From positions 564,257 to 628,256 of the forward strand of contig CAVSWO010000002.1 of assembly GCA_963731735.1 (NCBI GenBank): a DNA stretch of 64,000 bases, given 5' to 3'. Of this stretch, positions 4,891 through 30,090 are shown one piece after another. Positions within the stretch are counted from its first letter, which is position 1, and every line of letters begins with the position of its first letter. Position numbers and translations under genes: made by a program. A model generated the notes under the pieces. That model was not told where the DNA came from, searched no databases, and saw nothing but the letters and a program-made list of their open reading frames with translations. The stretch is from Candidatus Kerfeldbacteria bacterium. GTDB lineage: Bacteria > Patescibacteriota > Patescibacteriia > SBBC01 > CAIJZX01.

Positions 4891-6017
4891 AATATTTTCT
4901 GATTCTCGGATTAACCGGCTTGGGACTGTTTGGACCAAGCAGCGCGGCGGCCCAAACACCGCAGCCATCGATTCATTTAGTGACCTCCCAGGGCTTGGTG
5001 CAAACCGGTGATATCCTGACCGCCGAGATCCAACTCAATAGCGGTGGCCAGAACGTCAACGCGGTTGAAGTGGTGCTGCAATATGCGCCGCAACAACTGC
5101 AAGTGGTATCGGTTACGCGTCAGCAATCGGTCCTCACGCTATGGCCGGAAGTGCCGCGGTGGGATGCGCAACTCGGCGAGGTGCATATGACCGGTGGCCG
5201 CCCGGGCGGATTCTATGCCGTCAACGCTAGCCTGGCGACCGTTTACTTCCGGGCACTTACAAGCGGGCCCGTTCAGCTGGGATTTGATCTTGACCAGACG
5301 GCGGCCTACTTGCATGATGGAAAAGGCACCCGCCTGCCGCTCGAGTCGAGCGAGACAGAAATTCAGGTTGGCAGCAACCTCCAACCACGTCTCGAGTTAA
5401 TCTCGACGACGCATCCAACGCCGGAATATTGGTCGCATGGAACCAGCGTGCACGTCGGCTGGGTCGTTGAACCGGACACGGAATATTCATACGAGTTTTC
5501 AACCGATCCATCGGTACTGCCGGATGCAACGCCAGAAAAAAAAGTTGGTTCAGTTGAATATACCGGGCTGACTGATGGCGTCTACTTTTTTACTATCAAG
5601 CAGCGGGCAATAGGACAACCCTGGTCGGCCCTGATCCAGCGACGCTTTTTGATTGATGGGACGCCGCCAGCATCCTTCACGATTCAACGCGTCTCATCCG
5701 GCTTGGCTAACCGAGCCACTTGGCTGATTTGGAACACCACGGATCAAACCTCGGGATTGGTTGGATATCGCCTGGCGGTCGATGGCCGGGATGTTGGGGC
5801 GGTCTCCAGTCCGTTGAATTTTGACGATGCCTGGCGCGGTCACCGATTGACCATTACCGCCACCGACGCGGCCGGGAATATCCGCACGGCGACCTGGCAA
5901 AAATCCGAAGCTGGCGGGTATCATCCGCTCGTACAATGGTGGATTATTCTGATCTTGGGTGTCGGGGCGCTGGTCGTGGCTGTTTGGGTAACGCGACGAT
6001 TGATTGCATCGCGATGA
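4878..6017 (+). CDS. Membrane-anchored cohesin-like domain protein 1 (signal peptide, cohesin-like beta-sandwich, Fn3/Ig-like domain, C-terminal TM)
   Basis: The cohesin-like stretch (PSIHLVTSQGLVQTGDILTAEIQLNSGGQNVNAVEVVLQYAPQQLQVVSV) is followed by the pattern ...G..F......G...F.V. The C-terminal TM is WWIILILGVGALVVAVWV. It is paralogous to the next two genes. Confidence 0.65.
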   Translation: MDRIKYFLILGLTGLGLFGPSSAAAQTPQPSIHLVTSQGLVQTGDILTAEIQLNSGGQNVNAVEVVLQYAPQQLQVVSVTRQQSVLTLWPEVPRWDAQLGEVHMTGGRPGGFYAVNASLATVYFRALTSGPVQLGFDLDQTAAYLHDGKGTRLPLESSETEIQVGSNLQPRLELISTTHPTPEYWSHGTSVHVGWVVEPDTEYSYEFSTDPSVLPDATPEKKVGSVEYTGLTDGVYFFTIKQRAIGQPWSALIQRRFLIDGTPPASFTIQRVSSGLANRATWLIWNTTDQTSGLVGYRLAVDGRDVGAVSSPLNFDDAWRGHRLTITATDAAGNIRTATWQKSEAGGYHPLVQWWIILILGVGALVVAVWVTRRLIASR

Positions 6018-6043
6018 GCAATAATTCCTGATATACTCACCAT

Positions 6044-7477
6044 ATGCTGAATCGGATGATACATAAGCGTCGAGTACTGACAGGGTTGACGAACGTCCTG
6101 GCTGGTGCCGGATTGTTTTTGATACTCGTGCCTGGTGCAACTGCCCAAGCGACAGGTGCCAGCCTCAGCGTTTCGCCCAACTCCGGTGTCTTTGAAGTCG
6201 GCAGTTTAGTCGACGTTTCGTTCTTAGTTGATACCGGTGGCCAAGCGGTGAATGCCGTCAACGCTGAAGTTCAGTTCCCGGCCGACAAACTCCAAGTCGT
6301 AAACCCGGCCGCCAGCACCTCGTTCATCACGATTTGGGTCACCGCGCCGACCTATTCGAACAGCGACGGGACGATGCAATTTCAAGGTGGGTTACCGAAT
6401 CCGGGAATTAAGACGAGCGCGGGCGTAATCAGCACCGTCACTTTCCGCGTCACCGCGGCCGGCAAAGCCGTGATTAAATTTGCTCCCTCTTCCCAAGTGC
6501 TACGCAATGATGGTGAAGGAACGAATATATTGTCGGCCACTGGCAGCGCCGAACTCAGTCTCAAAATTCCCCCGCCGGCCGGACCAATTGTCACCAGCAC
6601 GTCGCATCCCGACAGTAATCAATGGTCGAACAATCCGAATGTGCAGCTGACCTGGGAAGCGCCCGAGGATGCGGTCGGGTATAGCTATAGTTTCGACCAA
6701 AATCCAAAATCCGTTCCCGATGAAACCATTGAGACCACCAAAACGAACGCGGACGTAAAAGCCGCAACGGATGGCGTCTGGTACTTTCATTTACGCGCCA
6801 AGAATGAAAGTTGGGGTGGCACAACGACCTATGCCGTTCGAATTGATACCACGCCGCCGGCCGCATTCACTCCTACCCTCGATCCGAATTTGATTACGGT
6901 CGAGCAAACCGCATTGCTGCGATTTCTGACCACTGACGCAGCCTCCGGCATCGATCACTATGAAGTCAAACAAATCGATGTTTCGGGCACCGGCCAGGGA
7001 GATACCTTGTTTATTGAATCGATCAGTCCGTATACGATTCAACGCCTGTCCGACGGGAGTTACCAATTTGTGGTTCGGGCATTTGATCGGGCTGGGAACG
7101 TGACCGAAGGGACAACCACCCTGACCGTGGTGGCGGCCGGACTACCCTTTTTTGCTCGAGTTCCGTTTCTAAGAAATCCGGCGGTCGCGAATATCGCGTT
7201 AGTAGTGCTGGCCAGTTTAGTACTCCTTTTTATTGGCTGGCTGATCATTCGTCGGGCCCGGCTGCGGAGTACATTCCGGCACGACTTGTCCAAGCTCGAG
7301 CATGATGCGCAAAAGAAAGCTGCCGATCTGCAGCAGGAGATGCAAGAAATCCAAGAAGCGGAAAACATGTTCCATCAGCAAGTCCCGCCCCTAGCCCCGC
7401 CACCGCCGCCTAGCGTGCCTCCGCCACCGCCCCAGCCGCCACCAGCCACCCCGCCCAATCAGCCATCCCGCCAATGA
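6044..7477 (+). CDS. Membrane-anchored cohesin-like domain protein 2 (cohesin-like, Fn3/Ig-like, TM, coiled-coil/Pro-rich cytoplasmic tail)
   Basis: The cohesin-like region is SLSVSPNSGVFEVGSLVDVSFLVDTGGQAVNAVNAEVQFPADKLQVVN...ISTVTFRVTAAGKAVIKF. The TM is ALVVLASLVLLFIGWLII and the tail is PPLAPPPPPSVPPPPPQPPP. Confidence 0.7.
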   Translation: MLNRMIHKRRVLTGLTNVLAGAGLFLILVPGATAQATGASLSVSPNSGVFEVGSLVDVSFLVDTGGQAVNAVNAEVQFPADKLQVVNPAASTSFITIWVTAPTYSNSDGTMQFQGGLPNPGIKTSAGVISTVTFRVTAAGKAVIKFAPSSQVLRNDGEGTNILSATGSAELSLKIPPPAGPIVTSTSHPDSNQWSNNPNVQLTWEAPEDAVGYSYSFDQNPKSVPDETIETTKTNADVKAATDGVWYFHLRAKNESWGGTTTYAVRIDTTPPAAFTPTLDPNLITVEQTALLRFLTTDAASGIDHYEVKQIDVSGTGQGDTLFIESISPYTIQRLSDGSYQFVVRAFDRAGNVTEGTTTLTVVAAGLPFFARVPFLRNPAVANIALVVLASLVLLFIGWLIIRRARLRSTFRHDLSKLEHDAQKKAADLQQEMQEIQEAENMFHQQVPPLAPPPPPSVPPPPPQPPPATPPNQPSRQ

Positions 7478-9126
7478 TCCGCCGCCTGGTTACCATCATC
7501 GGAGTCGGTTTCTTGGCTTGGGCCGTGCCGACGGTATCGCGGGCCGCGACCCTGTACTTATCACCTTCGTCGGGTACCTACTCGACTGGGCAAACGTTTT
7601 CAGCCAGTGTGCGCGTCAATACCGGCGGTCAGGCCATCAATGCGGCGGAAGGCACCCTGGCTTTTCCAACCGACTTGTTGGAAGTTACGAGCCTGAGCAA
7701 GAGCGGATCGGTCTTTTCCCTGTGGCCGAGCGACCCCAGTGCTTCAAACAGCACGGGGAAGATTAGTTATTCCGGCGGGGTGCCCAGTCCTGGATATACT
7801 GGCAGCAGCGGGAAAATATTTACCATTACTTTCAAGGTGAAAAGCACCGGTACGGCGGCGATTGCCGCTAGCAGCGGAAAAATATTGGCCAATGACGGCC
7901 AGGGCACAAATATTTTGACCGGCCAATCAGGCGGCACCTTTACCCTCAGCCAAACCGCCGCTCCCGCTCCGGCCGCGCCAGCCGAACCAGCAAAAACGAC
8001 CCCGACGTTGAGTTCCAGCACGCATCCAAATCAGGATGCCTGGTATCGTGATCTGCAAGCTAGCCTAACCTTTAGTCAGCCGACGGGCTTACTGGGCGTG
8101 AGCTTTGGACTGACCGATCAGCCGGATTCAGTCCCGGATGAAGTACCTGATCCGACGGACGGAACAATTCAAACCACCATACCGAATGAAGGCGTCTGGT
8201 ATTTTCATATTCGTGGCTGGTATAGCAATGGTTGGAGTTCAACCGCGCACTATCGATTCCAGATAGACCGGAGTGCGCCAGATCCATTTTCGATAACCTT
8301 GGATCGGGATCGTGACGTCAAAGACGCGACGCCCACCCTCAAGTTTATGGCCACGGATGCATTGAGTGGGATTGATCATTATACCTTGCGTTTGAATGGC
8401 GACGACCCTGAGCAAGTCGAAAGCCCGGTCACTTTAGCCCTAACCAACGGCGGTCCTCAGACGGTGGTCATCACAGCCTACGATCGGGCCGGTAACACAA
8501 AAACCAGTCAGCTAGATTTTGATTTTGACGGGTACCCGCCGCCGATCATTACCGGCATCAGTCAAAAGCTTATTCTGCTGCAACCCATTACGGTCGACGG
8601 AACAGCCGCCAGCGGTGATACGGTTACCATTTATCTGGATGGGGAGGTCCTCGGCACCGTCCAAGCCGGTCGGCTGACCGATCAGGGGGCAGTTGTGGTT
8701 CGGGTGCCGTGGCATTTTCAAAGCCAACGCTTGCTGGTGCCAGGCAAATACAGTTTGACGGCTACCGCCACCAGCGCCGACGGGATGGTCAGCGTCCCAA
8801 CCGATCCGAAAATTGTTCACGTGTCCGGCACCAGCCTGATTTTTAACGGCTATACCCTGGCCACCATCGCGATCGCTCCCGCCCTGGCCGGGCTGCTGAT
8901 TGTTCTGTTGGTAGCCAATAGCTTGGTCTACGTGCAACTGTTTCGGGCGGTTAAGCAAATGCACAGCCGAGAGTTACAAGCCGACCGAGATGTTCGTGCC
9001 TTAGCCCAACGGTTGGAGTCTCAACGGTTATCTCCCAGCGCCATCAAGAAAAGCCTCCAAGACATTGAACGCGACCTTGAGGAGCCGGCCAAGCCGGTCA
9101 AGAAACCTCGTCGCCGTAAATCATAA
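7474..9126 (+). CDS. Membrane-anchored cohesin-like domain protein 3 (cohesin-like, Fn3/Ig-like domains, TM, basic cytoplasmic tail)
   Basis: The cohesin-like region is ATLYLSPSSGTYSTGQTFSASVRVNTGGQAINAAEGTLAFPTDLLEVTS...IFTITFKVKSTGTAAI. The TM is LAGLLIVLLVANSLVYV and the tail ends KKPRRRKS. Confidence 0.7.
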   Translation: MIRRLVTIIGVGFLAWAVPTVSRAATLYLSPSSGTYSTGQTFSASVRVNTGGQAINAAEGTLAFPTDLLEVTSLSKSGSVFSLWPSDPSASNSTGKISYSGGVPSPGYTGSSGKIFTITFKVKSTGTAAIAASSGKILANDGQGTNILTGQSGGTFTLSQTAAPAPAAPAEPAKTTPTLSSSTHPNQDAWYRDLQASLTFSQPTGLLGVSFGLTDQPDSVPDEVPDPTDGTIQTTIPNEGVWYFHIRGWYSNGWSSTAHYRFQIDRSAPDPFSITLDRDRDVKDATPTLKFMATDALSGIDHYTLRLNGDDPEQVESPVTLALTNGGPQTVVITAYDRAGNTKTSQLDFDFDGYPPPIITGISQKLILLQPITVDGTAASGDTVTIYLDGEVLGTVQAGRLTDQGAVVVRVPWHFQSQRLLVPGKYSLTATATSADGMVSVPTDPKIVHVSGTSLIFNGYTLATIAIAPALAGLLIVLLVANSLVYVQLFRAVKQMHSRELQADRDVRALAQRLESQRLSPSAIKKSLQDIERDLEEPAKPVKKPRRRKS

Positions 9127-9902: not shown

Positions 9903-9979
9903 GGCCACTTAGCTCAGTTGGTTAGAGCGCACCGTTCACATCGGTGAGGTCGCTGGTCCGAATCCAGCAGTGGCCACCA
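9903..9979 (+). tRNA. tRNA-Val (anticodon CAC)
   Basis: Manual fold: acceptor GGCCACT/AGTGGCC, D-arm GCTC..GAGC, anticodon stem CACCG/CGGTG with loop TTCACAT, T-arm GCTGG-TCCGAAT-CCAGC, encoded CCA. Confidence 0.8.
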
Positions 9980-12869: not shown

Positions 12870-13313
12870 ATGAGTCTCATCGAGACCCTCGAGCACGATT
12901 ACAAAGAGGCTTTTAAAGCGCACCAAGCCGCCAAGGTGGCGGTTTTGCGCATGGTTAAAGCGGCGCTTAAAAACGCTGAAATTGAAGCTCGGCACGAATT
13001 GTCCGACGAGGAGGTGATTGCGGTTATGACCAAAGAAGCCAAACGCCGGCGTGAGGCAATTGCCATGTATCTCCAAGCCGGACGCCAATCCCTGGTTGAT
13101 CAAGAGAATGCTGAATTGCAGGAATTGATGTACTACCTCCCGACCCAATTTAGCGACAGTGAACTTGAAACCGAAGTCAAAAAGGTGATTGACCAACTCC
13201 AAGCCGGACCGAACGATTTCGGTCAGGTGATGGGCATGGTCATGAAGAACATCAAAGGCCAAGCCGACGGCAATCGAGTATCGGCTACCGTCAAACGGCT
13301 GCTGGCCAAATAA
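12870..13313 (+). CDS. yqeY: GatB/YqeY-domain protein
   Basis: Typical YqeY N-terminus (EAFKAHQAAKVAVLRMVKAALKNAE) and a 147-aa size. Confidence 0.75.
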   Translation: MSLIETLEHDYKEAFKAHQAAKVAVLRMVKAALKNAEIEARHELSDEEVIAVMTKEAKRRREAIAMYLQAGRQSLVDQENAELQELMYYLPTQFSDSELETEVKKVIDQLQAGPNDFGQVMGMVMKNIKGQADGNRVSATVKRLLAK

Positions 13314-13336: not shown

Positions 13337-16300
13337 ATGATCCGCGGATTCCGCCAATCCCGTCTACGCTACCTTTTGCCCGCCGTTTTCATCGGTGGTG
13401 CTTGCGCCTGGGCGCTGGTAGCTTGGCATCCAGTGCAAGCCCAAACGGCCAGCACCTTTAGCATCGAATCTGTCGGACAGCAGGTCGGACTTGGCAATGC
13501 CGATTTGCGCCAAGTGGCCATCAATATCATTCGCTGGTTGCTTGGATTTGTGACCCTGATTGCAGTCGCCTACCTGGTGTATGGCGGCTATCTGTGGATG
13601 ACCGCGGCCGGGAATGAACAGCGGGTTGAAAAAGCTAAACAGGTGATTTTGCAGGCGGTGATCGGCCTGGTAATTATTATCCTCGCCTGGGCAATTGTCT
13701 TGTTCGTGGCGCGGACGGTGGCGGAAACTACCAATACCAATAATACCAACGGCGGAGGCGGCGGAGGCTGTATTGGGTTCGAGTGTTTGTCTACGCCAAA
13801 AACCTTTGACCTGACGGGTGTCACGACCTGTTCGGCCCGACCGGATTATGCAAAAAATGTTCCGCGAGCCAGCGCCGTGTCTTTGACCTTCAACCATGAC
13901 ATTGATATTGCAACCGTCCAAGCTGCCGTTACCGATGCGGTGGCCGCGAACCCAAACCTCGTGATTGAAAAGTGTGATGCTGGCGATTGCGCGAATCGAA
14001 CAACCCTCGTCAAACCGCTCCAAAACCAAGTCTATTCGGGCACGACCCCGAAAGGTGCGGCTGGCACGCCGTTATCCGAGTGGGTTACCCATGACAATAC
14101 GGTGACGTTCTACCATACGTCATTTTCAACTGATGAAAACAATTCGGACAACTTGTACTTTGAACCGAATACTACCTACCAACTGACGGTCCCTGCCAAA
14201 GACGCTCCAACCGCCCTCAAAGATACCACCAGTCCCGGGCGAAGTCTGCAAAAGTGTCAGGCCAATTCGGCTAGACAACCGATTGAAGGTGACGGTTTCC
14301 TGGGTGAAAATTGCCGCGAAGTTGGCGATACGATTGTTTGGACTTTCACGACCGGCAGCGACATTGACGGACCGGAACTTACACCTCGCAGTACCACCCC
14401 AACCTCCGGTTACTTGACCGGTAACGGGGTTCCAGACCGGAACGTCAGTCGAACTGGTATTATCGGCATCGATTTCAACAATGCCATCGATCCGGCCTCT
14501 ATCACGACCGACAATTTTATCGTAACCAAGTATACAACCGCCCCAGACGCGACAAACGGAACCGGAGGAACGCTTGATGCGACGGCGCTCCCGGCTAGCG
14601 ACTTTGTGATTCGAGTCAACGGTAGCGGAACTGGCGGCTGGTTACAACTCAAAGCCGGCAATCTATTTGACCCGTTTACCTGGTATCAGGTGCGGGTCAA
14701 AGACGTTCGGAATTTATGTGGTACGGCCCAAAATCCAAATCCGTATGAATGGGTATTTGAAACGAACGATACGGTACCGGGGGTCAAACTAGTCTATCCA
14801 AAAAACGACGCCAAAAACATTTGTCCATCAACCGAGGTCTTTATCAAGTTCTCGACCTCGATGTGGCGAATCGATAGTGGCAGCACTACCTGCCAACCTG
14901 CTTCGGGCGGGAGCTACGTGACGAACGGCACACTGGCACCCAATCCGGGCCGTGGGTTCGTGGTGGAAGACGAACTTGACCCCAACAACCCGAATAACTC
15001 TTGCACGAAATACGCCTTCACACCAACCGAGACTTTACTGACTCCGGACAAACCTCATACCGCTTCGGTTACGACCAGCTTGGTGATTAATCAAGACGGT
15101 AACACGTTAAATCGAAACTGGACTTTCACAACCAGCAAAGCTGACCAGTGTATCCAAGAACCGTATATTGATCGAGTTGAAGCGAACACGGGTACTAACG
15201 GCCAATGTGTCTCGGTGATTGGGAACTACTTTGAAAAACAGCCACCGGGTGGCACACGCGAAACCGATGGCCAAGGATCCGATAAACTTTTCCTCTCGAC
15301 CGTTGACCAAAAGAATGCCAAGTCTTGGAAACAAAATGTGATTGTCAGTACGGTTAATGATGGGACGCCAGATTCGCCGGCTTTAGTGCCCGGACCTCAG
15401 CCATATAAAGTGGTACTCGATTACGGGGGAACAATTGGTCAGCTTGAAAGTAATACGGTCGATTTCAATTTACAAGCTGGTGGCGGTACACTGGGTGTCT
15501 GCTTGGTTGGTGTCACCCCAGATCAAGGTCCAGCCGGTACCAATACCACCCTGAGCGGTGAAGGCTTTGGTGGATTTGGTGCAAACAGCGCCGTAACGTT
15601 TTCGGGTGGACCGAACTGGGGAGTGGCGGCCGGAAACTGGAGTGATGGACGAATTAGTCCAGCCCAGGTGCCAACTACTACCCCTGATGGATCAGGATTG
15701 GTACGTGTACAGACGAATGGTGGTGCACTTTCGAATCCAGTTCCCTTTACCGTCACCGTACCGAATACGGGTGGGGGAGGTGGCGATACGGTTCCCCGAG
15801 TTGAAGAATCGGCGCAGTGTAATATTGCTCAAAACGAGATCCCAAGTCCGAACCCGAAGCGCAATGATAACCAAGCCTGTCTCAATACACAGGTCAGCGC
15901 CCGGTTTACACTCGATATGGATCAGAATTCTTTGAATAGCACCAATATTTTCTTACAAAAATGTGATCCGGTTTGTACGACCGCGGTGGCCAGCAGTGTG
16001 GTCGCAACTGGATTGCGTGGATTTACGCTCACACCAGACGCGAACCTTGAACCGTCAACTCGCTATCAAGTTACGGTCACCACCGGAGTGCAGAGTAATG
16101 CCAGCCCGGCGGTTCCGATGGCTGGGCCGTATACTTGGCAATTCACCACCAAGGCTGATGGAGCAAATTGTGCCCCGGCCGGTGTGACGGTTTCATCGAA
16201 CTCAGCTTTTGGGAATGCGATTCAAAGTTCAGCCACTCGCTATACCTACAGTGACCCAGTTCCTTACGGCGTCAATCTAACTGCCAATGTGGTTGATGCC

Positions 16301-19009
16301 GAGTGCCGTACTCTGATCCCAGGTTCGCTCAGTTTTGCCTGGGGGACGACGGATCAAAGTGTCGCTACCCTGACCCCAAACGATGCGCAAACTATCTTAG
16401 CGCATAGCCCAGCCACACCGGTTGCTGGTTCAAGTAACGTCAATGTCAAGGTTGACCAACTGACTTCGGCGAACGTCCAAATTAATTACGATCCGGTTTC
16501 CTGTCAAACAGACAGCGACTGTGCTTCCAATACATATGGTGCGTGCAGTGGCTCGACCTGTGAAAATAATCGTTGTACGCCGGTCGTGACGGAGCTGACG
16601 CCAACGACGGCGCCGATTGGTGACCTGATGACCATCAAAGGTTGCTGGTTTGGCGACTATGATGACACCATCAGCCAGGTAACCTTCCTCGGACAATCGG
16701 GAACGACCGATGATCAATCCGGAATAATCCCAGACTCGGCAATCTGCGGTCCGGCTTCGAACACCTGGACCAATGAAAGAATAGTTCGGGAAATTCCGAA
16801 CCGCACCACCCCGGATCCAAGCGATGATGCTGTGACGGGACCGGTTGAAGTCACACGCTTTGATAACAAACTTGCCCAAAGTCCGTCGGACTATGTGCCA
16901 ACCAATGACAATTTATCGCCAGGGATTTGCGCGGTCAATCCATCGTCAGGTCTGACGGGAACCGCGGTAACGGTCAAGGGTTTCCGTTTCGGGGCTGACG
17001 AAAGCAATAAGCGGCCAACGAACGACCAAGTCAATATCACCCGCATTGGTGGAAACACCGCGGTTATGTCGGTCTATGGTAACTGGTCAGATACCAGCAT
17101 CGGGACACAGATCCCTCCGTCAGCGGCAGTTGGTGCAAGCAATGTGAAGGTCAAGAATGACGACGTTGACTCTTCTAATGATTGGCCATTTACCGTGACC
17201 GATACGGGCGCGACCACCTGTGCGCAGTATTGTAGTAACGATAACCAATGTGGTGCTGGCCAGGGATGTGGAACAGATTTCTGCTGCAGCGCTCGGCCGA
17301 AAGTCACCGGAACCTCGCCGTCAGCCAATGCCACCAATGTCTGCCGTAACAGTCAACTTGATCTGACGTTTGACCAGCCGCTAGCCGTGCAATCGGGCGC
17401 AGTCGTTTACAGCGATGGGGGAACACCGGTTTCAGGTTCGACCCATCTCCAAAATAGTTCAACCACCGGCACCCTGAGCTATCAACCGGGTTTGTTACAG
17501 CCAGACTCTTCGCAACTCATCACGCTCAATCCGAATGCGATTCGCAGCTTGAAGGGCGTCACGGCCAGCAATACGTTTCCGACCGATTGTACCCTGGTGG
17601 CTCGGCCTCGGACACAGCCGAATCAAATATTGTGTTACCAAACCGGAAAAGATATTTGTCAGATTGATCAAATTCGGGTCCGGACTGAGGATGGATTGAA
17701 TACCCACCGCTTCACCAGTGTCGATGAAGTCATGCAGTATCGGGCCGAAGCCCTTTCGAATCGTGATGGCGGAACCGTAATCGTGCCGGTGCCGGGCACC
17801 TACGCCTGGACGTGGTCGTGGCAAAGCGCAAACTCGACGATCGCCACCGTCGGCTTGACCAGCGGCGCTAGCGCCAATCCGAGTACGAGTGACGTTACGG
17901 CCAAGAGTAACGGACGGACCTTAGCTCAGGCTACCGCTACAATTACCGAAGACACCCAAGGGAATTCTACCGGGACGCAAAAAAACGGTTCGGGCGAAGC
18001 GATTGTGGATGTGTGTGATAACCCCTGGAGTTTTACTGACGCGAATGATAATTGTGATTCGGGAGGGACTTGCAACGACTTTCACTTCACGCTGAGTTAC
18101 TGCCAAGGACAAGATTCTGCCGACCTCCTGCCATATTTCTCTTATACTGGTTCGAATGCCCAATTGGGAGCGATTGAAGGACAAAATTCGGCCGATACAT
18201 CGCGACTGAAGAGCATCTTCTTCAAAGAAACCGCCAGTAGTAAAGACGTGATTGGCATGCTCATATTCGACAACCCCGACCTATTATCTCCGTATGATTG
18301 GTTCAAGCAGCGCTTCCCGCTCGATACCGGCGGTTCGAGTTCAATCATTGCCGGCTATCCGGCCTTCCGAACTGGTACGACCACCTACATTGGGATTACC
18401 GATTTGTCGGGTGGAACGCTCACCGGCCGGATGGTTGTCTTGGATTACAACTCGAATAACGCCTCGACCGAGACCCAAAATATTTATAATCAAATCGTGA
18501 CCAAGGCCGAATTCAATACCAATGTCACGGACATTACCGAGAAACAACAAATCTTGAACGACACCAAGCGGGTGCAGGACCTGGCTTCCCTGAAAACCAA
18601 ACTCGCCGCCTACAAGACGGCTCACGGCAGTTATCCAAGCTTGCAAGCCGGTACCTACATCATCGGACTGAGTGCTTCAACCTGGCCGTCCTGGCAGCAA
18701 ACGCTTGGCAACGAACTTGGGCAATCAGCCCCAACTGATCCGACCAATACGTTTGCGCCGGATTGCAAACAAAATGTTGGCGGGAGTTATGAGAATCAAA
18801 CCTGTTGGTCCGAGTCGCTCAAACAATTCCAATGCCCGGCCGACTCCTATGTCTATCTCTATCGATCCAGCGGAGATAGTTACACCCTGTCCGCGCGGAT
18901 GGAGTACCAGGGAACCGGGAATTTCCAACAAAACGCCGGCTTGTCGGACAGTTGCAGCGGCGTTGCCGGGGCCCAGTGTTCCTGCTTTAATTACCGGGTA
19001 ACACCTTAA
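13337..19009 (+). CDS. Giant (1890 aa) Cys-rich surface protein. N-terminal signal peptide plus VirB2/TrbC-like pilin TM hairpin; long extracellular Ig/IPT-like repeats; C-terminal type IV pilin/GspG-like globular domain
   Basis: N-terminus: signal peptide (..HPVQAQ), TM1 LLGFVTLIAVAYLVYGGYLWM, short loop, TM2 VIGLVIIILAWAIVLFVA, then NTNNTNGGGGGG. C-terminus: LAAYKTAHGSYPSL...DPTN...YVYLYRSSGDSYTLSARMEY resembles the GspG/pilin head. Confidence 0.8.
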   Translation: MIRGFRQSRLRYLLPAVFIGGACAWALVAWHPVQAQTASTFSIESVGQQVGLGNADLRQVAINIIRWLLGFVTLIAVAYLVYGGYLWMTAAGNEQRVEKAKQVILQAVIGLVIIILAWAIVLFVARTVAETTNTNNTNGGGGGGCIGFECLSTPKTFDLTGVTTCSARPDYAKNVPRASAVSLTFNHDIDIATVQAAVTDAVAANPNLVIEKCDAGDCANRTTLVKPLQNQVYSGTTPKGAAGTPLSEWVTHDNTVTFYHTSFSTDENNSDNLYFEPNTTYQLTVPAKDAPTALKDTTSPGRSLQKCQANSARQPIEGDGFLGENCREVGDTIVWTFTTGSDIDGPELTPRSTTPTSGYLTGNGVPDRNVSRTGIIGIDFNNAIDPASITTDNFIVTKYTTAPDATNGTGGTLDATALPASDFVIRVNGSGTGGWLQLKAGNLFDPFTWYQVRVKDVRNLCGTAQNPNPYEWVFETNDTVPGVKLVYPKNDAKNICPSTEVFIKFSTSMWRIDSGSTTCQPASGGSYVTNGTLAPNPGRGFVVEDELDPNNPNNSCTKYAFTPTETLLTPDKPHTASVTTSLVINQDGNTLNRNWTFTTSKADQCIQEPYIDRVEANTGTNGQCVSVIGNYFEKQPPGGTRETDGQGSDKLFLSTVDQKNAKSWKQNVIVSTVNDGTPDSPALVPGPQPYKVVLDYGGTIGQLESNTVDFNLQAGGGTLGVCLVGVTPDQGPAGTNTTLSGEGFGGFGANSAVTFSGGPNWGVAAGNWSDGRISPAQVPTTTPDGSGLVRVQTNGGALSNPVPFTVTVPNTGGGGGDTVPRVEESAQCNIAQNEIPSPNPKRNDNQACLNTQVSARFTLDMDQNSLNSTNIFLQKCDPVCTTAVASSVVATGLRGFTLTPDANLEPSTRYQVTVTTGVQSNASPAVPMAGPYTWQFTTKADGANCAPAGVTVSSNSAFGNAIQSSATRYTYSDPVPYGVNLTANVVDAECRTLIPGSLSFAWGTTDQSVATLTPNDAQTILAHSPATPVAGSSNVNVKVDQLTSANVQINYDPVSCQTDSDCASNTYGACSGSTCENNRCTPVVTELTPTTAPIGDLMTIKGCWFGDYDDTISQVTFLGQSGTTDDQSGIIPDSAICGPASNTWTNERIVREIPNRTTPDPSDDAVTGPVEVTRFDNKLAQSPSDYVPTNDNLSPGICAVNPSSGLTGTAVTVKGFRFGADESNKRPTNDQVNITRIGGNTAVMSVYGNWSDTSIGTQIPPSAAVGASNVKVKNDDVDSSNDWPFTVTDTGATTCAQYCSNDNQCGAGQGCGTDFCCSARPKVTGTSPSANATNVCRNSQLDLTFDQPLAVQSGAVVYSDGGTPVSGSTHLQNSSTTGTLSYQPGLLQPDSSQLITLNPNAIRSLKGVTASNTFPTDCTLVARPRTQPNQILCYQTGKDICQIDQIRVRTEDGLNTHRFTSVDEVMQYRAEALSNRDGGTVIVPVPGTYAWTWSWQSANSTIATVGLTSGASANPSTSDVTAKSNGRTLAQATATITEDTQGNSTGTQKNGSGEAIVDVCDNPWSFTDANDNCDSGGTCNDFHFTLSYCQGQDSADLLPYFSYTGSNAQLGAIEGQNSADTSRLKSIFFKETASSKDVIGMLIFDNPDLLSPYDWFKQRFPLDTGGSSSIIAGYPAFRTGTTTYIGITDLSGGTLTGRMVVLDYNSNNASTETQNIYNQIVTKAEFNTNVTDITEKQQILNDTKRVQDLASLKTKLAAYKTAHGSYPSLQAGTYIIGLSASTWPSWQQTLGNELGQSAPTDPTNTFAPDCKQNVGGSYENQTCWSESLKQFQCPADSYVYLYRSSGDSYTLSARMEYQGTGNFQQNAGLSDSCSGVAGAQCSCFNYRVTP

Positions 19010-19013
19010 AACG

Positions 19014-19514
19014 ATGGTCGAACAACCACTCCCAAACCAACCCTTACCCGATCCAGTCAACCCTTCCTGGTTGGCTCGATGGTGGAAAATTGGTATACTC
19101 ATCGTGCTTGCTTTCGGTCTGATTATCGTCGGTATCTGGATGCTTCGATCGAACACCAATGGTATGAATCAGCCGACGACCAACGGATCTGCGAATACCA
19201 ATACCGCAACCCGCTCAACCTTTGAGCGTTTCCCAACCGATACTCGTCAAGACACGGATGCGGACGGCCTGACCGACCAAGAGGAAGCCAAGTACGGCAC
19301 CAATCCAGAGTTGGCCGATTCGGACGGGGACGGATTGACTGATCGGGAAGAGATCCAGGTCTATCAAACGGATCCGCTCAAAGCCGATACCGATGGTGAT
19401 GGACGAACCGACAGCCAAGAAGTTCAGGCCGGAACAAATCCAAACGGCGACGGCCAATTACGGGACCTCCCGAGCGCCATTCAACAACTTCAATCATCGT
19501 CAACCAACAACTAA
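19014..19514 (+). CDS. Single-TM protein with thrombospondin type-3-like Ca-binding repeats
   Basis: TM is WWKIGILIVLAFGLIIVGIWML. Three DxDxDGxxDxxE repeats (DTDADGLTDQEE, DSDGDGLTDREE, DTDGDGRTDSQE). Confidence 0.7.
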   Translation: MVEQPLPNQPLPDPVNPSWLARWWKIGILIVLAFGLIIVGIWMLRSNTNGMNQPTTNGSANTNTATRSTFERFPTDTRQDTDADGLTDQEEAKYGTNPELADSDGDGLTDREEIQVYQTDPLKADTDGDGRTDSQEVQAGTNPNGDGQLRDLPSAIQQLQSSSTNN

Positions 19515-19523
19515 TTAACGCGT

Positions 19524-20672
19524 ATGTTCGAAAACCAACAGCCAAACTCACCAACACCAGGTACTCCGCCACCGAATATTCCGACGCCGCCGGCCACGCC
19601 GCCGCCCGCAACTCCACCCGCCATGCCACCCAGTCCTTCGACCGGGTCGACCAGTCCGGCGTCAACGCCGCCTCCGGCCGGTGATCCGTCGCCGAAAATT
19701 TATACCATGCCGGAAAAATTTCGGGCCAATAATAACGGCAAGTCACCGTCAGGCGGCGGTACCAAGCGCCTGGTAATCATTTTAGTGGTGGTCTTGGTGG
19801 TTGCTGGGTTAGGAATTGCCGGACTGTATGTCTTCCAGAATGTTTTGAATAAACCGGCCAACGACAACCTGAATGTCAATCTCAATCGGAATACGAACCT
19901 CAACACTAATACGGCCAATCTAAATACCGCGAATACCAACACGGCCAACTTGAACGCGAACACCAACGCTAACCTGAATGAGAACGCCAACACGAACGCG
20001 AACACCAACGGCAACGGCAATGACAATGCCAATAGCAATGCCAATCAGAATACCAATACGACAGTTTCAACTACCCCGCTTCCGTCTTCAGCCGATGCGG
20101 ATGATGACGGGTTGACTGATACGGAAGAACTGGCCTACGGCACTGACGCCAAGAAGCCGGATACGGACGGGGACGGATTTATTGATGGGAAAAAAGTCCA
20201 AACAGACGGATCCATAATCGGCGAAATCTACCTTGGCTTTAATCCCACCGGCACCGGAAAATTGGAAGATTCGACGATCGTCAAGCGCCAGGCTAATTCC
20301 TCAAATACTTACAGCCTATTAATTCCTTCAACCTGGACAGCGGTTCTCGACCAAGGCGGCGGCGTGTTGGTCACCCCATCACAATCAACCGGAGAAACCT
20401 TCCAGGTTCGTGTTAGCGCCAACCCAACAAATTTGACACCCCAGGCCTGGTACCAGCAAACGATTAACGCCAGCGCGAACACGAGCAGTCTGAAAACGGA
20501 AGCGCTGAATGGATTTGAAATCCTTTACAGCGAAAATATGGCCACCGCCTATCTATTTCAGGGCACCAGCGTCTACAGTATCGCCTACGACACCGGATCA
20601 CTCACGCAGGCCAATTACTGGACCACCTTCGATATGATGGTTCGCAGTTTTAAACTCGTTGCCAGCAGCTAG
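19524..20672 (+). CDS. Pro-rich/TM/Asn-rich low-complexity protein with TSP3-like repeat and C-terminal globular domain
   Basis: Pro-rich N-terminus, TM LVIILVVVLVVAGLGIAGLYVF, ~65 aa of NTNANLN-type repeats, and DADDDGLTDTEE...DTDGDGFIDGKK. Confidence 0.7.
   Translation: MFENQQPNSPTPGTPPPNIPTPPATPPPATPPAMPPSPSTGSTSPASTPPPAGDPSPKIYTMPEKFRANNNGKSPSGGGTKRLVIILVVVLVVAGLGIAGLYVFQNVLNKPANDNLNVNLNRNTNLNTNTANLNTANTNTANLNANTNANLNENANTNANTNGNGNDNANSNANQNTNTTVSTTPLPSSADADDDGLTDTEELAYGTDAKKPDTDGDGFIDGKKVQTDGSIIGEIYLGFNPTGTGKLEDSTIVKRQANSSNTYSLLIPSTWTAVLDQGGGVLVTPSQSTGETFQVRVSANPTNLTPQAWYQQTINASANTSSLKTEALNGFEILYSENMATAYLFQGTSVYSIAYDTGSLTQANYWTTFDMMVRSFKLVASS
19860..20058 (+). repeat. Coding low-complexity Asn/Thr/Ala repeat tract (NxN tandem codon repeats)
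   Basis: Imperfect tandem repeats of aa(c/t)acc / aa(c/t)gcg / aacctgaat units encoding NTNTANLNTANTNTANLNANTNANLNENANTNANTNGNGNDNANSNANQNTNT. Confidence 0.7.
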
Positions 20673-21108
20673 ATCCCGCTCCCGTTCCCGCCGAATTACG
20701 ATTCGGCGGGCCGTACCCCCGCGAATCGCTGACCGGACGATTCGGGATTGGGCCATACGCTGGGCCCGCCAAGTCCGGCTGGCTGGTCCGGGCCTGTCGA
20801 TCGTTATTCTCGGCCCGGCGGCTATGCGCCGATTGAACCGAACCTGGCGCGGACGAGATCGAGCAACCAACGTTCTGTCCTTTTTGTATGCCAAGCAGTC
20901 GGCCGTGCCGGACGGGGTAGCCGGTGAGATATTTCTGTGTCCGAGCGTGATTCAACGCGAAGCTCAGGACTTTGACCGGACCTACCGCCAGCATTTTATG
21001 GCCCTGCTCCGCCACGGAATTCTGCATTTGACCGGCCGGGATCACCGGACAGCCGCTCAGCAGCAAAACTGGAATCGCATCGAACGACGTTTGACCTCAT
21101 TTACATGA
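20659..21108 (+). CDS. ybeY: Endoribonuclease YbeY (rRNA maturation factor)
   Basis: HGILHLTGRDH metal-binding motif and NVLSF. The start is uncertain; the track ORF overlaps the upstream gene by 14 nt. Confidence 0.75.
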   Translation: MPAARSRSRSRRITIRRAVPPRIADRTIRDWAIRWARQVRLAGPGLSIVILGPAAMRRLNRTWRGRDRATNVLSFLYAKQSAVPDGVAGEIFLCPSVIQREAQDFDRTYRQHFMALLRHGILHLTGRDHRTAAQQQNWNRIERRLTSFT

Positions 21109-21476
21109 GCACCCTCAAGAAATTTTTCAAAAGTTTCCGCCACGCTTGGCACGGGGTACTTCGCGCCCTGGCCATGGAGAACAGTTTTCGAATTCACGTG
21201 GCTGTCGCGATTGTGGTGCTGCTGCTGATTGTGGCATTGGGTTTGAGTCGCGTTGAGTTGGCGATTATGATTTTCCTGATCAGCTCTATTTTAACGCTGG
21301 AACTGGTCAACACGGTGGTTGAACGGTTCGTTGACCTGTTGGAACCGCGGGTTCACCCTTATGCCGGCATGATTAAGGATATATTAGCGGCGGCGGTGCT
21401 GATTACCTCGCTGGCGGCGGCGGCTATTGGAATTTTGATTCTGTGGCCGTATTTACGAGATTTCTTTCAGGTCTGA
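21105..21476 (+). CDS. dgkA: Diacylglycerol/undecaprenol kinase (DgkA family) membrane protein
   Basis: 3-TM, 123 aa, with a conserved E...N(T)VVE motif (LELVNTVVERFVD). Confidence 0.65.
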   Translation: MSTLKKFFKSFRHAWHGVLRALAMENSFRIHVAVAIVVLLLIVALGLSRVELAIMIFLISSILTLELVNTVVERFVDLLEPRVHPYAGMIKDILAAAVLITSLAAAAIGILILWPYLRDFFQV

Positions 21477-21491: not shown

Positions 21492-21522
21492 AGGGCTGTT
21501 ATCCACAGCCCTCGCATTTTTA
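21492..21522 (+). terminator. Rho-independent terminator after dgkA
   Basis: Stem AGGGCTGT/ACAGCCCT with loop TATCC, followed by CGCATTTTTA. Confidence 0.6.
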
Positions 21523-24859: not shown

Positions 24860-24975
24860 TTTCTATCCACTAACCCTTTTGCGCCATGCCGCACACGCAC
24901 CTCAAGACTGACCGCCTCCGGACCGCTGAGCCAGCTGTTCGTATTGCTGAACCGCCCAAACGTAAAGGACCAGGC

Positions 24976-27900
24976 ATGAAAATCTCCCGCCGTTGGACAA
25001 CGGCCGGACAAGACCCGCTCGAACAGCTGGAATACGCGATGCGACAATCCGTTATTCGCAATCCGGACGGCACGATCGTCAAAGAAATTACTGACGTTGA
25101 AGTTCCGACCAGCTGGAGCCAGGTGGCGACCGACATCATGGCCCAAAAGTATTTCCGCAAAGCTGGTGTCCCGCAATTTGATGGGCAAGGAAAGCCGCGG
25201 GTGGCGGCCGATGGCCAGCCAATTTTGGGTTCGGAAACGAGCGCCAAGCAGGTCGTCCGACGTTTAGCCGGTACCTGGCGCTGGTGGGGTGAACAGCACG
25301 GCTATTTCGCTTCGACCGATGACGCCCAGGCCTATCAAGATGAAATGGAATATACGCTGATCCGACAGTTTGGCGCGCCGAACTCACCCCAATGGTTTAA
25401 CACCGGCCTTAACAGGTCCTACGGCATAACCGGTTCGCCGCAGGGGCACTACTACATTGATCCGGAAACCGCCGAACTTAAGCGATCGGAAGACGCCTAT
25501 ACGCACCCGCAACCGCACGCCTGCTTTATCCAAAAAGTTGATGATGATCTGGTCAACGAGGGCGGGATTTTTGATCTGGTGACGCGGGAAGCCCGCCTAT
25601 TCAAATTTGGATCCGGCACGGGCAGCAACTTCTCCTCGCTGCGGGGGAAAGGCGAACGCCTCTCCGGCGGCGGCCAGAGCTCCGGGCTGATGTCGTTCCT
25701 GAAAATTTTTGACCGTTCGGCCGGTGCGATTCAATCCGGCGGGACGACCCGGCGAGCCGCCAAGATGGTGGTGGTTGATGTTGATCACCCGGACGTCCAG
25801 GATTTCATTCGCTGGAAAGTTGTGGAAGAACAAAAAGTCGCCGACTTGTATGCCGGCAGCCGGATTAACGCCAAGTACCTGAACGAGATTATGCGGGTGG
25901 CGCATGCCGAGAACTCAATCGATTATCATAAGAACCCCGCTTTGAAAGCGGTCGTTGGCGAGGCGCTCAAGCGCAATGTACCGCTGAATTACGTCTTACG
26001 CGTGTTGGCCCTGGTCGAACAAGGCCAAAGCAGCATTGATTTTCCGACCTACAGCACCCACTTTGAAGATGAAGCCTATCAAACCGTTTCCGGGCAAAAC
26101 GCGAACAATACGGTTCGCGTGACTAATGATTTTATGGAGTCGGTTGAGCGCGATGCGAGCTGGGATTTGATCAACCGAACCACCAACGAACCATCGAAGA
26201 CCTTGCCGGCCCGACAACTTTGGGAAGAAATCGCCCAAGCCGCCTGGGCCTCGGCCGATCCGGGACTGCAATTCGATACCACCATCAACGAATGGCATAC
26301 CTGTCCGGCTGATGGACGGATTAACGCCTCCAACCCGTGCTCGGAATATATGTTCCTGGACGATACGGCCTGCAACCTGGCGTCGATCAACCTGGCCCAC
26401 TTCTATGATACTGACAGTGGCCAAATTGATGTCGAAGCCCTCAAGCACACGACGCGGCTTTGGACCATTACCTTGGAAATATCGGTCTTAATGGCACAAT
26501 TCCCAAGTCGGGAGATTGCGCGCCTGTCGTATATTTATCGCACGCTGGGACTCGGCTATGCCAACTTAGGCAGCGTCTTAATGATGATGGGGGTACCTTA
26601 CGATTCGCCCGAAGCCTTGGCCATTGCCGGATCAATCACGGCTATCATGTGCGGCGAGTCATATGCGACCAGTGCCGAACTAGCCAGCCACCTCGGGCCC
26701 TTCCCGGGCTTCGACCAAAACCGCGACCACATGTTGCGCGTGATTCGCAATCATCGCCGGGCGGCTTACAACGCACCGACCGGGGAATATGAAGGCTTGT
26801 CGATTACGCCGATGGGCATCGATCCAAAACAGGCGCCGGACTACTTAGTTAAACATGCACGGGAAACCTGGGACCGGGCGCTGCAGTGGGGGAAAGAACA
26901 TGGATATCGGAACGCGCAGGTGACGGTGATTGCTCCGACCGGAACCATCGGTCTGTTGATGGACTGCGATACGACCGGTGTTGAGCCGGACTTCGCGATC
27001 GTCAAGTTCAAAAAGCTGGCCGGCGGCGGTTATTTCAAAATCGTCAACCAATCGGTGCCGCGCGCCCTCAAGCGGCTGGGGTATGTGGACGAACAAATTG
27101 AAGCGATCAAAAATTACTCAAAAGGTCACGCGACCTTATCGGGCGCGCCGCATATTGATCACGAGACACTCAAGGCCAAAGGCTTGACCGACGAAGATCT
27201 GGCGAAAGTTGAATTGCAACTGGATTCAGCTTTTGATATCCGTTTTGTCATCAATCCAACCACCTTAGGTGAAGCGGCGATGGAGCGACTGGGTCTCGGC
27301 CAGCACGCCGGCGAGCCAAGTTTCAACGTGCTCGAAGCCATTGGCTTTACCAAAGCCCAAATCGAAGCCGCCAATGAATATGTGGTCGGGACAATGACGA
27401 TCGAAGGCGCGCCCTTCCTCAAACCCGAGCATTACCCGATATTTGATTGCGCCAACAAGTGCGGCGTGAAAGGCGAACGGTACATTCCGTACACCGCGCA
27501 CATCAAAATGATGGCCGCCGTCCAGCCCTTTATCTCCGGTGCGATTTCGAAAACCATTAACATGCCGAACGACGCCACGATTGAAGAGGTGAAACAAGTG
27601 CACGATGATTCCTGGAAACTCATGCTTAAGGCCATCGCCCTCTATCGTGATGGATCAAAACTGTCACAACCGCTCAACTCGGTCAATGTGGATGATGAAT
27701 TAGCCGCCTTGGGCGTGGCCGAAGACGATGTGGCCGAACCGACTCCGCAAGTCATGAACGATATCGCAGCCGTTCGCGCGATCAAGGAAAAACTGCCGCC
27801 GAAACGCGTCGGTTGGACGCAGGAAGCGATTGTTGGCGGACACAAAGTTTTCATTAGAACAGGTGAGTACAACGATGGCCGCTTGGGTGAAGTCTTCATT

Positions 27901-28392
27901 GATATGTATAAAGATGGTGCCGCCTATCGTTCACTCATCAACTGCTTCGCCATCCTGGTCTCCAAGAGTCTCCAGTACGGCATGCCGCTTGAGGAACTGG
28001 TCGATACTTTCACCTTTACCCGGTTTGAACCGTCCGGCATGGTTCAGGGGCACTCGAACATACGCTTCTCGACCTCCATCCTGGACTACATTTTCCGCTT
28101 GCTGGGATATGAATATCTGAACCGCGAAGACCTGGTCCAAATCAAACCGGAACACAGCAACGGCGAAGAAAACTCCACCAGTGCCACGCACGACACACCA
28201 CCACCGGCGGTCTCCAAACCGGCCGCCCAGCCGTCTGCCCCCGCCACGTCGATCATAGGCGATGACCGTTCTCAAGCGCGCGCCCAAGGCTTTACCGGCG
28301 ATACTTGCTCCAGCTGCGGCTCGATGAAAATGAAGCGCAACGGATCCTGCATGGTTTGTATTGAGTGTGGGACAACCACGGGGTGTTCCTAA
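24976..28392 (+). CDS. nrdJ: Ribonucleotide reductase, class II (adenosylcobalamin-dependent), large monomeric form with C-terminal Zn ribbon
   Basis: Active-site [16 protein letters not shown], the C-terminal CSSCGS...CMVCIECG motif, ~1138 aa. No intein motifs were seen. Confidence 0.85.
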
Positions 28393-28449
28393 ACACTAAT
28401 CACCATTCGATGGGCGGTACCGAAAGTGAAGGATAACTAAAACAAACGG

Positions 28450-28474
28450 CCCGGCCGAGCTTTGCTCGGCCGGG
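28450..28474. terminator. Perfect 11-bp stem hairpin after nrdJ (CCCGGCCGAGC-ttt-GCTCGGCCGGG)
   Basis: Perfect inverted repeat. The T-run is on the minus side only (AAAACAAACGG upstream), so it may be a bidirectional or island-boundary structure. Confidence 0.4.
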
Positions 28475-28845
28475 TCACAAAACTCAAGCGGTGTCTTCAT
28501 ATGCCAAATCCACAAATTAGTCAGCCACCCCAAAAACCTAGCCAGCCTAAAGACAATTCCATTCTCGGGACCGGCCTGGGTTGTCTCGGGTTGATTATTT
28601 TTGTTATTGTTTTCGTCTTGTGGTTTCAGGCGGGTTGGGCTGGTAAAACCGGTGGTCAAATTCCTTTCTATATTTTTCTACTACTGTTTTTTGCTACCGT
28701 ATTTTGGATGAGTTGGCGGGATATGATTCGCCGTCTTGAACAGGGTAAAGCGAAGTTAGGCACAAACAAACTCTGGATGGTTCTTTCGGCCATCCTATTC
28801 GTGATGACTTTGGTAAATTTCATTTCTCTCATTACCTCGAGTTGA
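28462..28845 (+). CDS. Small polytopic membrane protein (hypothetical)
   Basis: ORF with 3 predicted TM helices, lying in the low-GC block. The start may instead be the MPNPQIS Met at 28501. Confidence 0.5.
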   Translation: MLGRVTKLKRCLHMPNPQISQPPQKPSQPKDNSILGTGLGCLGLIIFVIVFVLWFQAGWAGKTGGQIPFYIFLLLFFATVFWMSWRDMIRRLEQGKAKLGTNKLWMVLSAILFVMTLVNFISLITSS

Positions 28846-28881
28846 GTGGTACTGGACAAGAAATAATGTTATCCTAGAATC

Positions 28882-29229
28882 ATGACTGATACAACTTCAA
28901 AAACCCAAAAAGTAAAGGCCGAAATTAAGAAAGAAGTGGATAAGATTCCGCCTACCTCGGACCAGAACCTGCTGGCCGCGTTATCGTACGCCTGGGTGAT
29001 TAGCTTAGTGATGCTGCTGATTAAGCGTCACGATGAGTACATCCAGTTTCACGCCAAGCAGGGAGTAATTTTATGGATTGCCTCACTTTTCGCGTTTATT
29101 CCGGGCCTGGGCTTTATTATCTGGGCATTGTCAATTGCCGGCATGGTCATCGGATTCATCAACGCCTGGCAGGGCAAGCGCAACAAGTTACCATTCGTCT
29201 ATAACTTGAGCCGGAAGATTAATTTCTAA
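28882..29229 (+). CDS. Small membrane protein (possibly DUF4870-like)
   Basis: 115 aa. LLAALSYAWVISLVMLL...FHAKQGVILWI pattern and 2-3 TM helices. Confidence 0.5.
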   Translation: MTDTTSKTQKVKAEIKKEVDKIPPTSDQNLLAALSYAWVISLVMLLIKRHDEYIQFHAKQGVILWIASLFAFIPGLGFIIWALSIAGMVIGFINAWQGKRNKLPFVYNLSRKINF

Positions 29230-29249
29230 ACAGAGCCGGAGAAGAAAAT

Positions 29250-29639: not shown

Positions 29640-29734
29640 ATGGGCCTGGAATAGCGGCAAGACAAAGGCTTTTTCAAGACTAACATATTCAGCAATGGCG
29701 AAGCCTGCTCCCCAAAAACTACGAGTCAATAGTC

Positions 29735-30070: not shown

Positions 30071-30090
30071 TATACAAGGATTATTTACTC

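Follow-up and report, generated by a model that had tools for sequence, protein, structure and literature searches.

Bacteria of the Candidate Phyla Radiation (CPR) are thought to live attached to other cells, and the molecules that make this contact are largely unknown. Among the most abundant lineage-specific domains of these bacteria is T4SS_pilin, which has been read until now as the marker of a small pilus subunit. The VirB2-like pilins of the CPR are small proteins, often encoded in tandem arrays near virB4 (PMC12102498). Type IV secretion systems (T4SSs) with such pilins are widespread in the CPR and are essential for epibiotic growth in one Saccharibacterium (PMC12102498, PMC12857230), and a PrgB-like adhesin was not found in the monoderm CPR T4SS (PMC12102498). 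Pam pili are built from small pilins polymerised by donor-strand exchange with membrane-anchored chaperones and were found mainly in Saccharimonadia and Microgenomatia (bioRxiv 10.64898/2026.03.03.709456). Here we analyzed by computation a 64-kb stretch of contig CAVSWO010000002.1 (the window), in which three adjacent open reading frames (ORFs), ORF1 to ORF3, encode a giant protein of 1890 amino acids (aa) and two smaller membrane proteins. We found that ORF1 begins with a VirB2-type hairpin and ends with a two-domain module, in which a PsbP-like domain is followed by a domain resembling the head of a type IV pilin without its stem. The trio may form a giant surface fibre or adhesin that combines elements of two unrelated pilus lineages, the conjugative and the type IV.

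Domain anatomy of the giant protein ORF1

The original prediction described an operon of three genes, in which a protein with a VirB2/TrbC-like N-terminal hairpin and a GspG-like C-terminal head was followed by two single-pass membrane proteins with thrombospondin type-3 (TSP3) repeats. The coordinates, lengths and plus strand of all three ORFs were reproduced (Table 1). Kyte-Doolittle hydropathy identified three hydrophobic segments in ORF1 (aa 10-32, 59-88 and 97-133) and none beyond aa 133, a pattern kept in most of the full-length family members examined. The first segment belongs to a predicted Sec signal peptide; cleavage by signal peptidase I would occur after V-Q-A, a site placed by the -3/-1 rule and not by a predictor, and an A-x-A-like cleavage motif is conserved in the family alignment. 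The second and third segments form a hairpin of two transmembrane helices linked by the basic loop TAAGNEQRVEKAK, so that the N-terminus carries a signal segment and two more segments, not the single membrane segment on which the hairpin claim would have foundered. Pfam T4SS_pilin (PF18895) matched aa 62-123 with 35.6 bits in a scan of full-length ORF1 and 40 bits when aa 1-160 were scanned alone, both above the cut-off of 26.6. On the other hand, TrbC/VirB2 (PF04956), which had been proposed for the same check, scored 19.8 bits against a cut-off of 27.9, and the NCBIfam Mbov_0395 pilin-like family scored 32.7 bits on the hairpin against a cut-off of 40. The profile match, together with the signal peptide, two helices and polar loop, places the N-terminus among the T4SS_pilin/VirB2-like proteins; ORF1 is not one of the small hairpin-only members, since 1750 aa follow the hairpin. 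Across the family the loop is near-invariant (LWMTAAGNExRVEKAK). Because it carries R, K and K, the positive-inside rule suggests that the loop lies in the cytoplasm and that everything after aa 126 lies outside the cell.

The hairpin is followed by a stalk in which the predicted Cys-rich, Ig-like character was borne out. Six Big_5 stretches were identified, five of them over the cut-off, with 111.9 bits for Big_5 in total, at about aa 170-261 (weak), 352-476, 478-599, 837-938 and 1320-1408 (one or two overlapping matches), and TIG matched aa 725-805 and 1082-1129 (31.9 and 21.4 bits on sub-segments). ORF1 thus belongs to the Big_5 / IPT-TIG proteins by matches over the cut-off, and the whole protein contains 49 cysteines. 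A whole-protein search returned 76 homologues, all of which carried T4SS_pilin and 74 of which also carried Big_5. The distant ones add VWA, fn3, LamG, malectin and DUF4215 domains, and adhesins on cell surfaces typically show such domain swapping. Public database entries for the homologues read only "Ig-like domain-containing protein" or "hypothetical protein". The identical protein is also recorded on a contig of 822,872 bp. Two homologues have an organism name, of which the closer is from Candidatus Kerfeldbacteria and the other from Candidatus Parcubacteria, in keeping with the assignment of the window to a CPR bacterium. When compared with PHROGs, neither ORF1 nor ORF3 showed a relationship to phages, and ORF2 had a single repeat-driven match; on this result and the housekeeping context a phage tail fibre was rejected.

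At the C-terminus, about 150 aa had been assigned to the globular domain of GspG and type IV pilins. We found instead that the conserved unit comprises 334 aa and has two parts. The first part contains, at aa ~1610-1725, a domain that adopts the PsbP/Mog1/LpqN/DcrB-like fold in the predicted structure. The second part combines a helix of 31 residues (aa 1733-1763) with a beta-sheet and ends in a Cys-rich segment; the helix, which is amphipathic, follows the folded PsbP-like domain. In the model this helix packs on an antiparallel sheet as the alpha1C helix does in the pilin globular fold, and the pilins matched (score and percentage in brackets) were Thermus PilA4 (5.5, 21%), EpsG (5.3, 20%), CFA/III pilin (5.2, 7%), a Shewanella pilin (5.2, 15%), C. 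difficile PilA1 (4.9, 11%), PilV (4.6, 12%), TcpA (4.1, 17%) and PulG (4.0, 21%). Sequence comparison pointed the same way, weakly but consistently. T2SSG (PF08334) scored 14.6 bits on ORF1, under its cut-off of 21, and was the sole recurring Pfam family in the module, found in 12 of 27 members, always sub-threshold, with a best E-value of 0.009; the matches cover profile positions 12-69, where the globular domain of pilins begins. When aligned by hhalign with E. coli GspG, the module motif KRxxDLxxIxxxLxxYxxxxGxYP was placed on the alpha1C helix (P 5.6e-4 with the single sequence; P 1.2e-4 and a probability of 55% over 29 columns with a profile of 117 sequences). This motif and LPxDPxN are conserved across the module family.

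Several other searches of the same module identified no relative of known family. No curated family in Pfam or NCBIfam matched over threshold and NCBIfam holds no family for the module, HMMER against PDB sequences with the single module sequence and two profiles gave no match, and Foldseek with the two-domain model against PDB returned no pilin among its top 50. The class III prepilin motif (G-F/M-T-L-I/L-E) was absent from all six frames of the window and was not found in correct position in any of 203 family proteins, and the hydrophobic alpha1N stem helix was found neither in ORF1 nor in those 203 proteins. Without a prepilin signal and stem helix, a true type IV pilin or pseudopilin is excluded. 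The fold match and the sub-threshold sequence signals, both of modest score, suggest that the C-terminus is a pilin-head-like domain without a stem helix. The motifs, the predicted fold and the missing N-terminal helix of the original claim therefore stood, and the extent of the conserved C-terminal unit had to be corrected.

The module extends well beyond this family of giants. An exhaustive HMMER search of 1.84 billion representatives identified 1275 cluster representatives at 50% identity (E <= 1e-3), and a word-indexed homology search for these 334 aa found no relatives. The module was seen in two contexts. In giant proteins with a signal peptide and two transmembrane helices it lies around position 1500-2000, and in secreted proteins of 500-1100 aa that are rich in Cys it comes directly behind an ordinary Sec signal peptide. 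Its position directly behind Sec signal peptides in the smaller proteins indicates that it behaves as an autonomous extracellular module. The only match in a species-representative genome collection (L006, 10001-10897; 30% identity) lay on a contig of a metagenome-assembled genome labelled 'uncultured Gammaproteobacteria', which may be mis-binned.

We also compared the regions of ORF1 for conservation, counted as residues identical to the window ORF1 per region length in 38 closer and 37 distant homologues. The hairpin was the best-conserved region (75% in closer and 53% in distant homologues), followed among the closer homologues by the PsbP-like domain (55% and 29%) and the pilin-like domain (47% and 34%), and the stalk was the least conserved (37% and 20%). 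By this measure ORF1 is constrained at both ends and free to vary between them.

ORF2, ORF3 and the conserved locus

Both smaller genes encode single-pass TSP3 proteins, as had been predicted. ORF2 matched TSP3_bac (PF18884) with 86.9 bits over three repeats of the form DxDxDGxxDxxE, and a hydrophobic stretch at about aa 25-44, seen in the translation, provides its one transmembrane helix. Weak NCBIfam matches of ORF2 to MtsD (31.8 against a cut-off of 800) and CglD (29.6 against 400) are attributed to the common TSP3 repeats. ORF3 starts with a Pro-rich region, carries a conserved TMPEKFR motif and one transmembrane helix, and continues through an Asn-rich linker and two TSP3 repeats to a PsbP-like domain of ~140 aa at its C-terminus. 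Its TSP3_bac score of 20.4 bits was under the cut-off of 25, but the Asp and Gly residues of the repeats (DxDxDGLTDxEE...DxDxDxFxDG) were invariant in five orthologues (alignment A2). When the C-terminal domain of ORF3 was aligned with the PsbP-like domain of ORF1, hhalign gave a probability of 89% (P 2.3e-6). By this profile-profile comparison the two domains are homologous, which is a new link between ORF3 and the giant.

Table 1. Features of the ORF1-ORF3 locus, in window coordinates
Feature	Position	Strand	Basis
yqeY, upstream neighbour of ORF1	12870..13313	+	Pfam YqeY
ORF1, giant surface protein, 1890 aa	13337..19009	+	ORF list, translation
Predicted Sec signal peptide of ORF1, aa 1-34, cleavage after VQA	13337..13438	+	hydropathy, -3/-1 rule
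VirB2-type helical hairpin of ORF1, aa 59-126	13511..13714	+	Pfam PF18895, hydropathy
Extracellular stalk of ORF1 (predicted), Ig-like domains with paired cysteines, aa 160-1556	13814..18004	+	Big_5, TIG
First half of C-terminal module, Cys-rich lead then PsbP/Mog1/LpqN-like domain, aa 1557-1725	18005..18511	+	
Second half of C-terminal module, type-IV-pilin-head-like domain, aa 1726-1890	18512..19006	+	
ORF2, single-pass membrane protein with three TSP3 repeats, 166 aa	19014..19514	+	ORF list, TSP3_bac
ORF3, single-pass membrane protein, 382 aa	19524..20672	+	ORF list, alignment, hhalign
ybeY and dgkA, downstream neighbours of ORF3	20659..21476	+	Pfam YbeY, DAGK_prokar
Strongest terminator-like hairpin 3' of the gene string	21492..21512	.	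consensus scan

The genes from yqeY to dgkA are tightly spaced on one strand, with gaps of 23 nt (yqeY-ORF1), 4 nt (ORF1-ORF2) and 9 nt (ORF2-ORF3) and overlaps of 14 nt (ORF3/ybeY) and 4 nt (ybeY/dgkA). Terminator-like hairpins are pattern matches here and imply no function. Weak ones were found on the plus strand inside ORF1 (5-7 pairs, 3-4 of them G-C), and the strongest on that strand in this stretch lies only after dgkA; its stem has 8 pairs, 5 of them G-C, and the pattern is matched on both strands. Promoter and terminator scans were near the expectation from shuffled sequence, and a clear internal promoter was not found. Since the spacing is tight and the strongest plus-strand hairpin comes only after dgkA, the trio is probably part of a longer transcription unit, so that of the predicted three-gene operon the close same-strand arrangement holds and its isolation does not.

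Seven related loci of 17-26 kb, in which the identity of the giant to ORF1 ranges from 52% down to ~26%, all have the giant followed by a small membrane protein, a mid-size protein and ybeY, in this order. The small protein has a TSP3 match in six of the seven; the orthologue in locus L002 is truncated to 113 aa and is without repeats. In all six loci that reach far enough, dgkA and ftsA come next, usually followed by ftsZ. The string lepB-hisS-...-yqeY precedes the trio in six of the seven loci, and in two of these six yqeY is non-adjacent or on the opposite strand. The trio occurs once per locus and signs of mobility were not seen; a mobile-element conjugation pilin is ruled out by this vertically conserved locus. 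The PsbP-like domain, its homologue in ORF3, the breadth of the module and the housekeeping and cell-division synteny had all been overlooked in the original prediction.

We scanned for secretion and pilus machinery as well. None of the T4SS core genes (virB4, virB6, virB3/prgI, virD4) was found in the seven related loci or in 43 scanned ORFs, which include the majority of the window's longer ORFs, and no type IV pilus machinery was found among the scanned ORFs of the window. In one related locus (L007, 22954-26157), a few kb downstream of the trio, a Peptidase_A24 prepilin peptidase gene directly follows ftsZ and is followed, after one unrelated gene, by a gene with a weak N_methyl pilin match; this arrangement was unseen in the window and the other loci. 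Two loci contain a second, shorter protein with T4SS_pilin and Big_5 upstream of the giant, of 603 aa in L004 (6193-8004), where it abuts the giant directly, and of 986 aa in L007 (5427-8387), where one small gene lies between. These paralogues keep the loop as LWMxxxGNxxxxxKAK and are without the C-terminal pilin-like module.

The window as a whole has almost all of its genes on one strand, a dense housekeeping content and a GC fraction of ~0.53, and it resembles the DNA of a CPR bacterium with a small genome. Just upstream of the locus, 3556-9126 (+) encodes secreted proteins with cohesin, dockerin and Ig-like matches (Dockerin_1 at 3556-4890; Cohesin at 4878-6017 and 7474-9126), which suggests a cohesin-dockerin surface assembly in this CPR genome. 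No riboswitch or leader was found at 9-25 kb with Rfam, whose sole match was a tRNA at 9903-9976 (+; 67.7 bits). The GTG listed as the start of the signal peptidase I ORF (9944) falls within this tRNA, so the true lepB start must be further downstream. A class II ribonucleotide reductase of 1168 aa at 24886-28392 (+) has its barrel match in two stretches and a weak TACO1_YebC_N match at aa 309-370, which may be an inserted element. The GC fraction falls to 0.487-0.494 at 28000-32000, relative to ~0.54 in the flanks, and small multi-transmembrane ORFs to which no function was assigned occur at 28462-28845 and 29250-29639; these do not match the hairpin profile. At 42373-44650 (+) a ComEC-like competence channel (Competence and DUF4131) is followed by a separate metallo-beta-lactamase ORF, and the DNA-uptake channel appears to be split into two genes. 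The isoleucyl-tRNA synthetase ORF at 57450-60905 (+; 1151 aa) carries His_Phos_1 at aa 490-669 (E 1.2e-37) between two tRNA-synt_1 stretches, an unusual insertion or fusion.

Possible roles of the trio

The reading that we consider most likely, with chances of about even, is that the trio forms a core complex at the cell surface of a Kerfeldbacteria-like CPR bacterium, as a fibre or an adhesin. ORF1 would be exported by Sec and lose its signal peptide, and the hairpin would then hold it in the cytoplasmic membrane with the N-terminus out, the basic loop in and the C-terminus out. About 1400 residues of disulfide-stabilised Ig-like domains would form a stalk, by rough estimate of the order of 50 nm long, through and beyond the wall, at the far end of which a compact two-domain head, with the PsbP-like domain packed against the type-IV-pilin-like globular domain, would be displayed and would probably bind the ligand. 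ORF2 and ORF3 would sit in the membrane with the N-terminus inside and the C-terminus outside, and their TSP3 repeats, predicted to bind Ca, together with the PsbP-like copy of ORF3, would probably act with the giant at the cell surface. Any type IV filament requires a prepilin signal and a hydrophobic stem helix, and the pilin-like head lacks both; it is thus a borrowed domain and cannot be a filament subunit. An attachment role, like that of a fibre or adhesin, is suggested here by the domain content.

Three points weigh against this proposal. The hairpin is the most conserved part of ORF1, which is unusual for a passive anchor and suggests a specific partner or self-assembly. The expression, surface exposure, Ca binding and mutual contact of the three proteins are presumed. 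In addition, conserved gene order is common in CPR genomes and is by itself no proof of a common function.

The conservation of the hairpin bears most directly on the possibility that ORF1 is a minor or tip subunit of a CPR T4SS pilus of the VirB2 type, with the hairpin taken up by the T4SS and inserted in the filament as a small VirB2-like pilin would be, and the 1750-residue extension serving as an adhesin. A score over the T4SS_pilin cut-off agrees with such a role, and strong conservation with a near-invariant loop would be expected of a hairpin that has to fit an assembly machine or a filament lattice. T4SSs of this kind are common in the CPR, as noted above, and as far as Table S1 of PMC12102498 goes, VirB4 is recorded in two of four Kerfeldbacteria genomes. 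However, virB4, virB6 and virD4 were found neither in the scans of the window nor in the seven loci, whereas the small CPR pilins are usually encoded near virB4, and the locus is a vertically conserved housekeeping block. For steric reasons, an appendage of 1750 aa could be accommodated only at the tip or in very few copies, and the 603- and 986-aa hairpin and Big_5 paralogues beside the giant suggest that surface proteins use the hairpin as a general N-terminal module. We consider a pilus subunit unlikely on balance. A related possibility, and in our judgement also an improbable one, is that the hairpin is an assembly module, with the giants either loaded by a T4SS or bundling by themselves into a filament that carries, at its tip or surface, the 1750-residue stalk with a pilin-derived binding head. 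If this were true, ORF1 would supply the adhesin that the monoderm CPR T4SS has been missing.

It is distinctly unlikely that the trio is a structural component of the envelope, such as a spacer, a fibre tethering the wall or S-layer, or a division-linked factor, in which the TSP3 proteins cross-link the outer layer. The fixed place beside ybeY-dgkA-ftsA-ftsZ and lepB-hisS-yqeY across deep divergence would suit such a component, as would the single occurrence per locus and the absence of mobility signs, and PsbP/LpqN/DcrB/TiME-like folds are typical of envelope-associated proteins. However, the stalk evolves fast and swaps domains (VWA, LamG, fn3, malectin), which is more typical of a protein with a changing partner, and adjacency to ftsA and ftsZ is weak evidence for a role in division because gene order is broadly conserved in small CPR genomes. 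That the C-terminal domain is not derived from a pilin, its helix on a small sheet being a simple fold reached by convergence or a modelling artefact, is very unlikely: the Foldseek search without a pilin in its top 50, the empty HMMER searches and the low T2SSG and hhalign scores would agree with it, but three independent signals agree on one register, with T2SSG the only recurring family, aligned at the start of the pilin globular domain, and hhalign putting the conserved motif exactly on the GspG alpha1C helix.

Returning to the fibre or adhesin complex, the findings bear on how CPR surface proteins are annotated. Here the hairpin known from small pilins, under stronger constraint than the rest of the protein, heads giant, vertically inherited proteins away from any T4SS genes identified in these scans, which suggests that it may serve more generally as an anchor or assembly module; the T4SS_pilin domain of CPR bacteria would then be read differently. 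The two-domain module, PsbP-like plus a stemless type IV pilin head, is undescribed and would represent the globular domain of a filament subunit reused free-standing. The conserved trio is a defined target for structural and cell-biological work.

Comparison with known systems

Full-text literature searches did not find the fusion of the hairpin to a giant protein, the module of PsbP-like and stemless pilin domains, or the trio described, which agrees with the earlier remark that the arrangement was not recognised from described systems. The small CPR VirB2-like pilins (PF18895) resemble ORF1 in their signal peptide, two helices and short basic loop, pass the same cut-off and come from the same phylum. 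They differ in that ORF1 has a 1750-aa extracellular extension and lies in a housekeeping block with no T4SS genes found in 64 kb.

The C-terminal 165 aa of ORF1 share their globular layout with type IV pilins and the pseudopilins of type II secretion systems (GspG/EpsG/PulG, PilA4; PF08334 and N_methyl PF07963), namely an alpha1C-like helix, an alpha-beta loop, an antiparallel sheet and a C-terminal Cys-rich segment, and KRxxDLxxIxxxLxxYxxxxGxYP and LPxDPxN occur in the same order in both. Unlike those proteins, ORF1 has no class III signal peptide, Gly(-1)/Glu5 or hydrophobic alpha1N helix and does not reach the Pfam cut-offs, and its pilin-like domain is C-terminal in a giant protein, behind a PsbP-like domain. 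In the modular type IV pilins of monoderms, such as PilB and PilC of Streptococcus sanguinis, a complete N-terminal pilin part polymerises and a module is grafted C-terminally. Both these proteins and ORF1 join a pilin domain to extra adhesive modules, but ORF1 has them in the opposite order and is without the stem helix.

Pam pili are similar to the trio in being an extracellular structure of CPR bacteria with Ig-like folds, Sec export and housekeeping neighbours, whereas they are without a VirB2-type hairpin, a type-IV-pilin-like head and TSP3 partners; this different architecture rules out Pam-type donor-strand pili as the identity of the trio. Giant Ig-repeat adhesins and TSP3 proteins such as Myxococcus CglD and MtsC/MtsD share with the trio the strings of Ig-like domains, the distal binding module and the TSP3 repeats. 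To our knowledge, these proteins are anchored otherwise than by an N-terminal hairpin of the VirB2 type.

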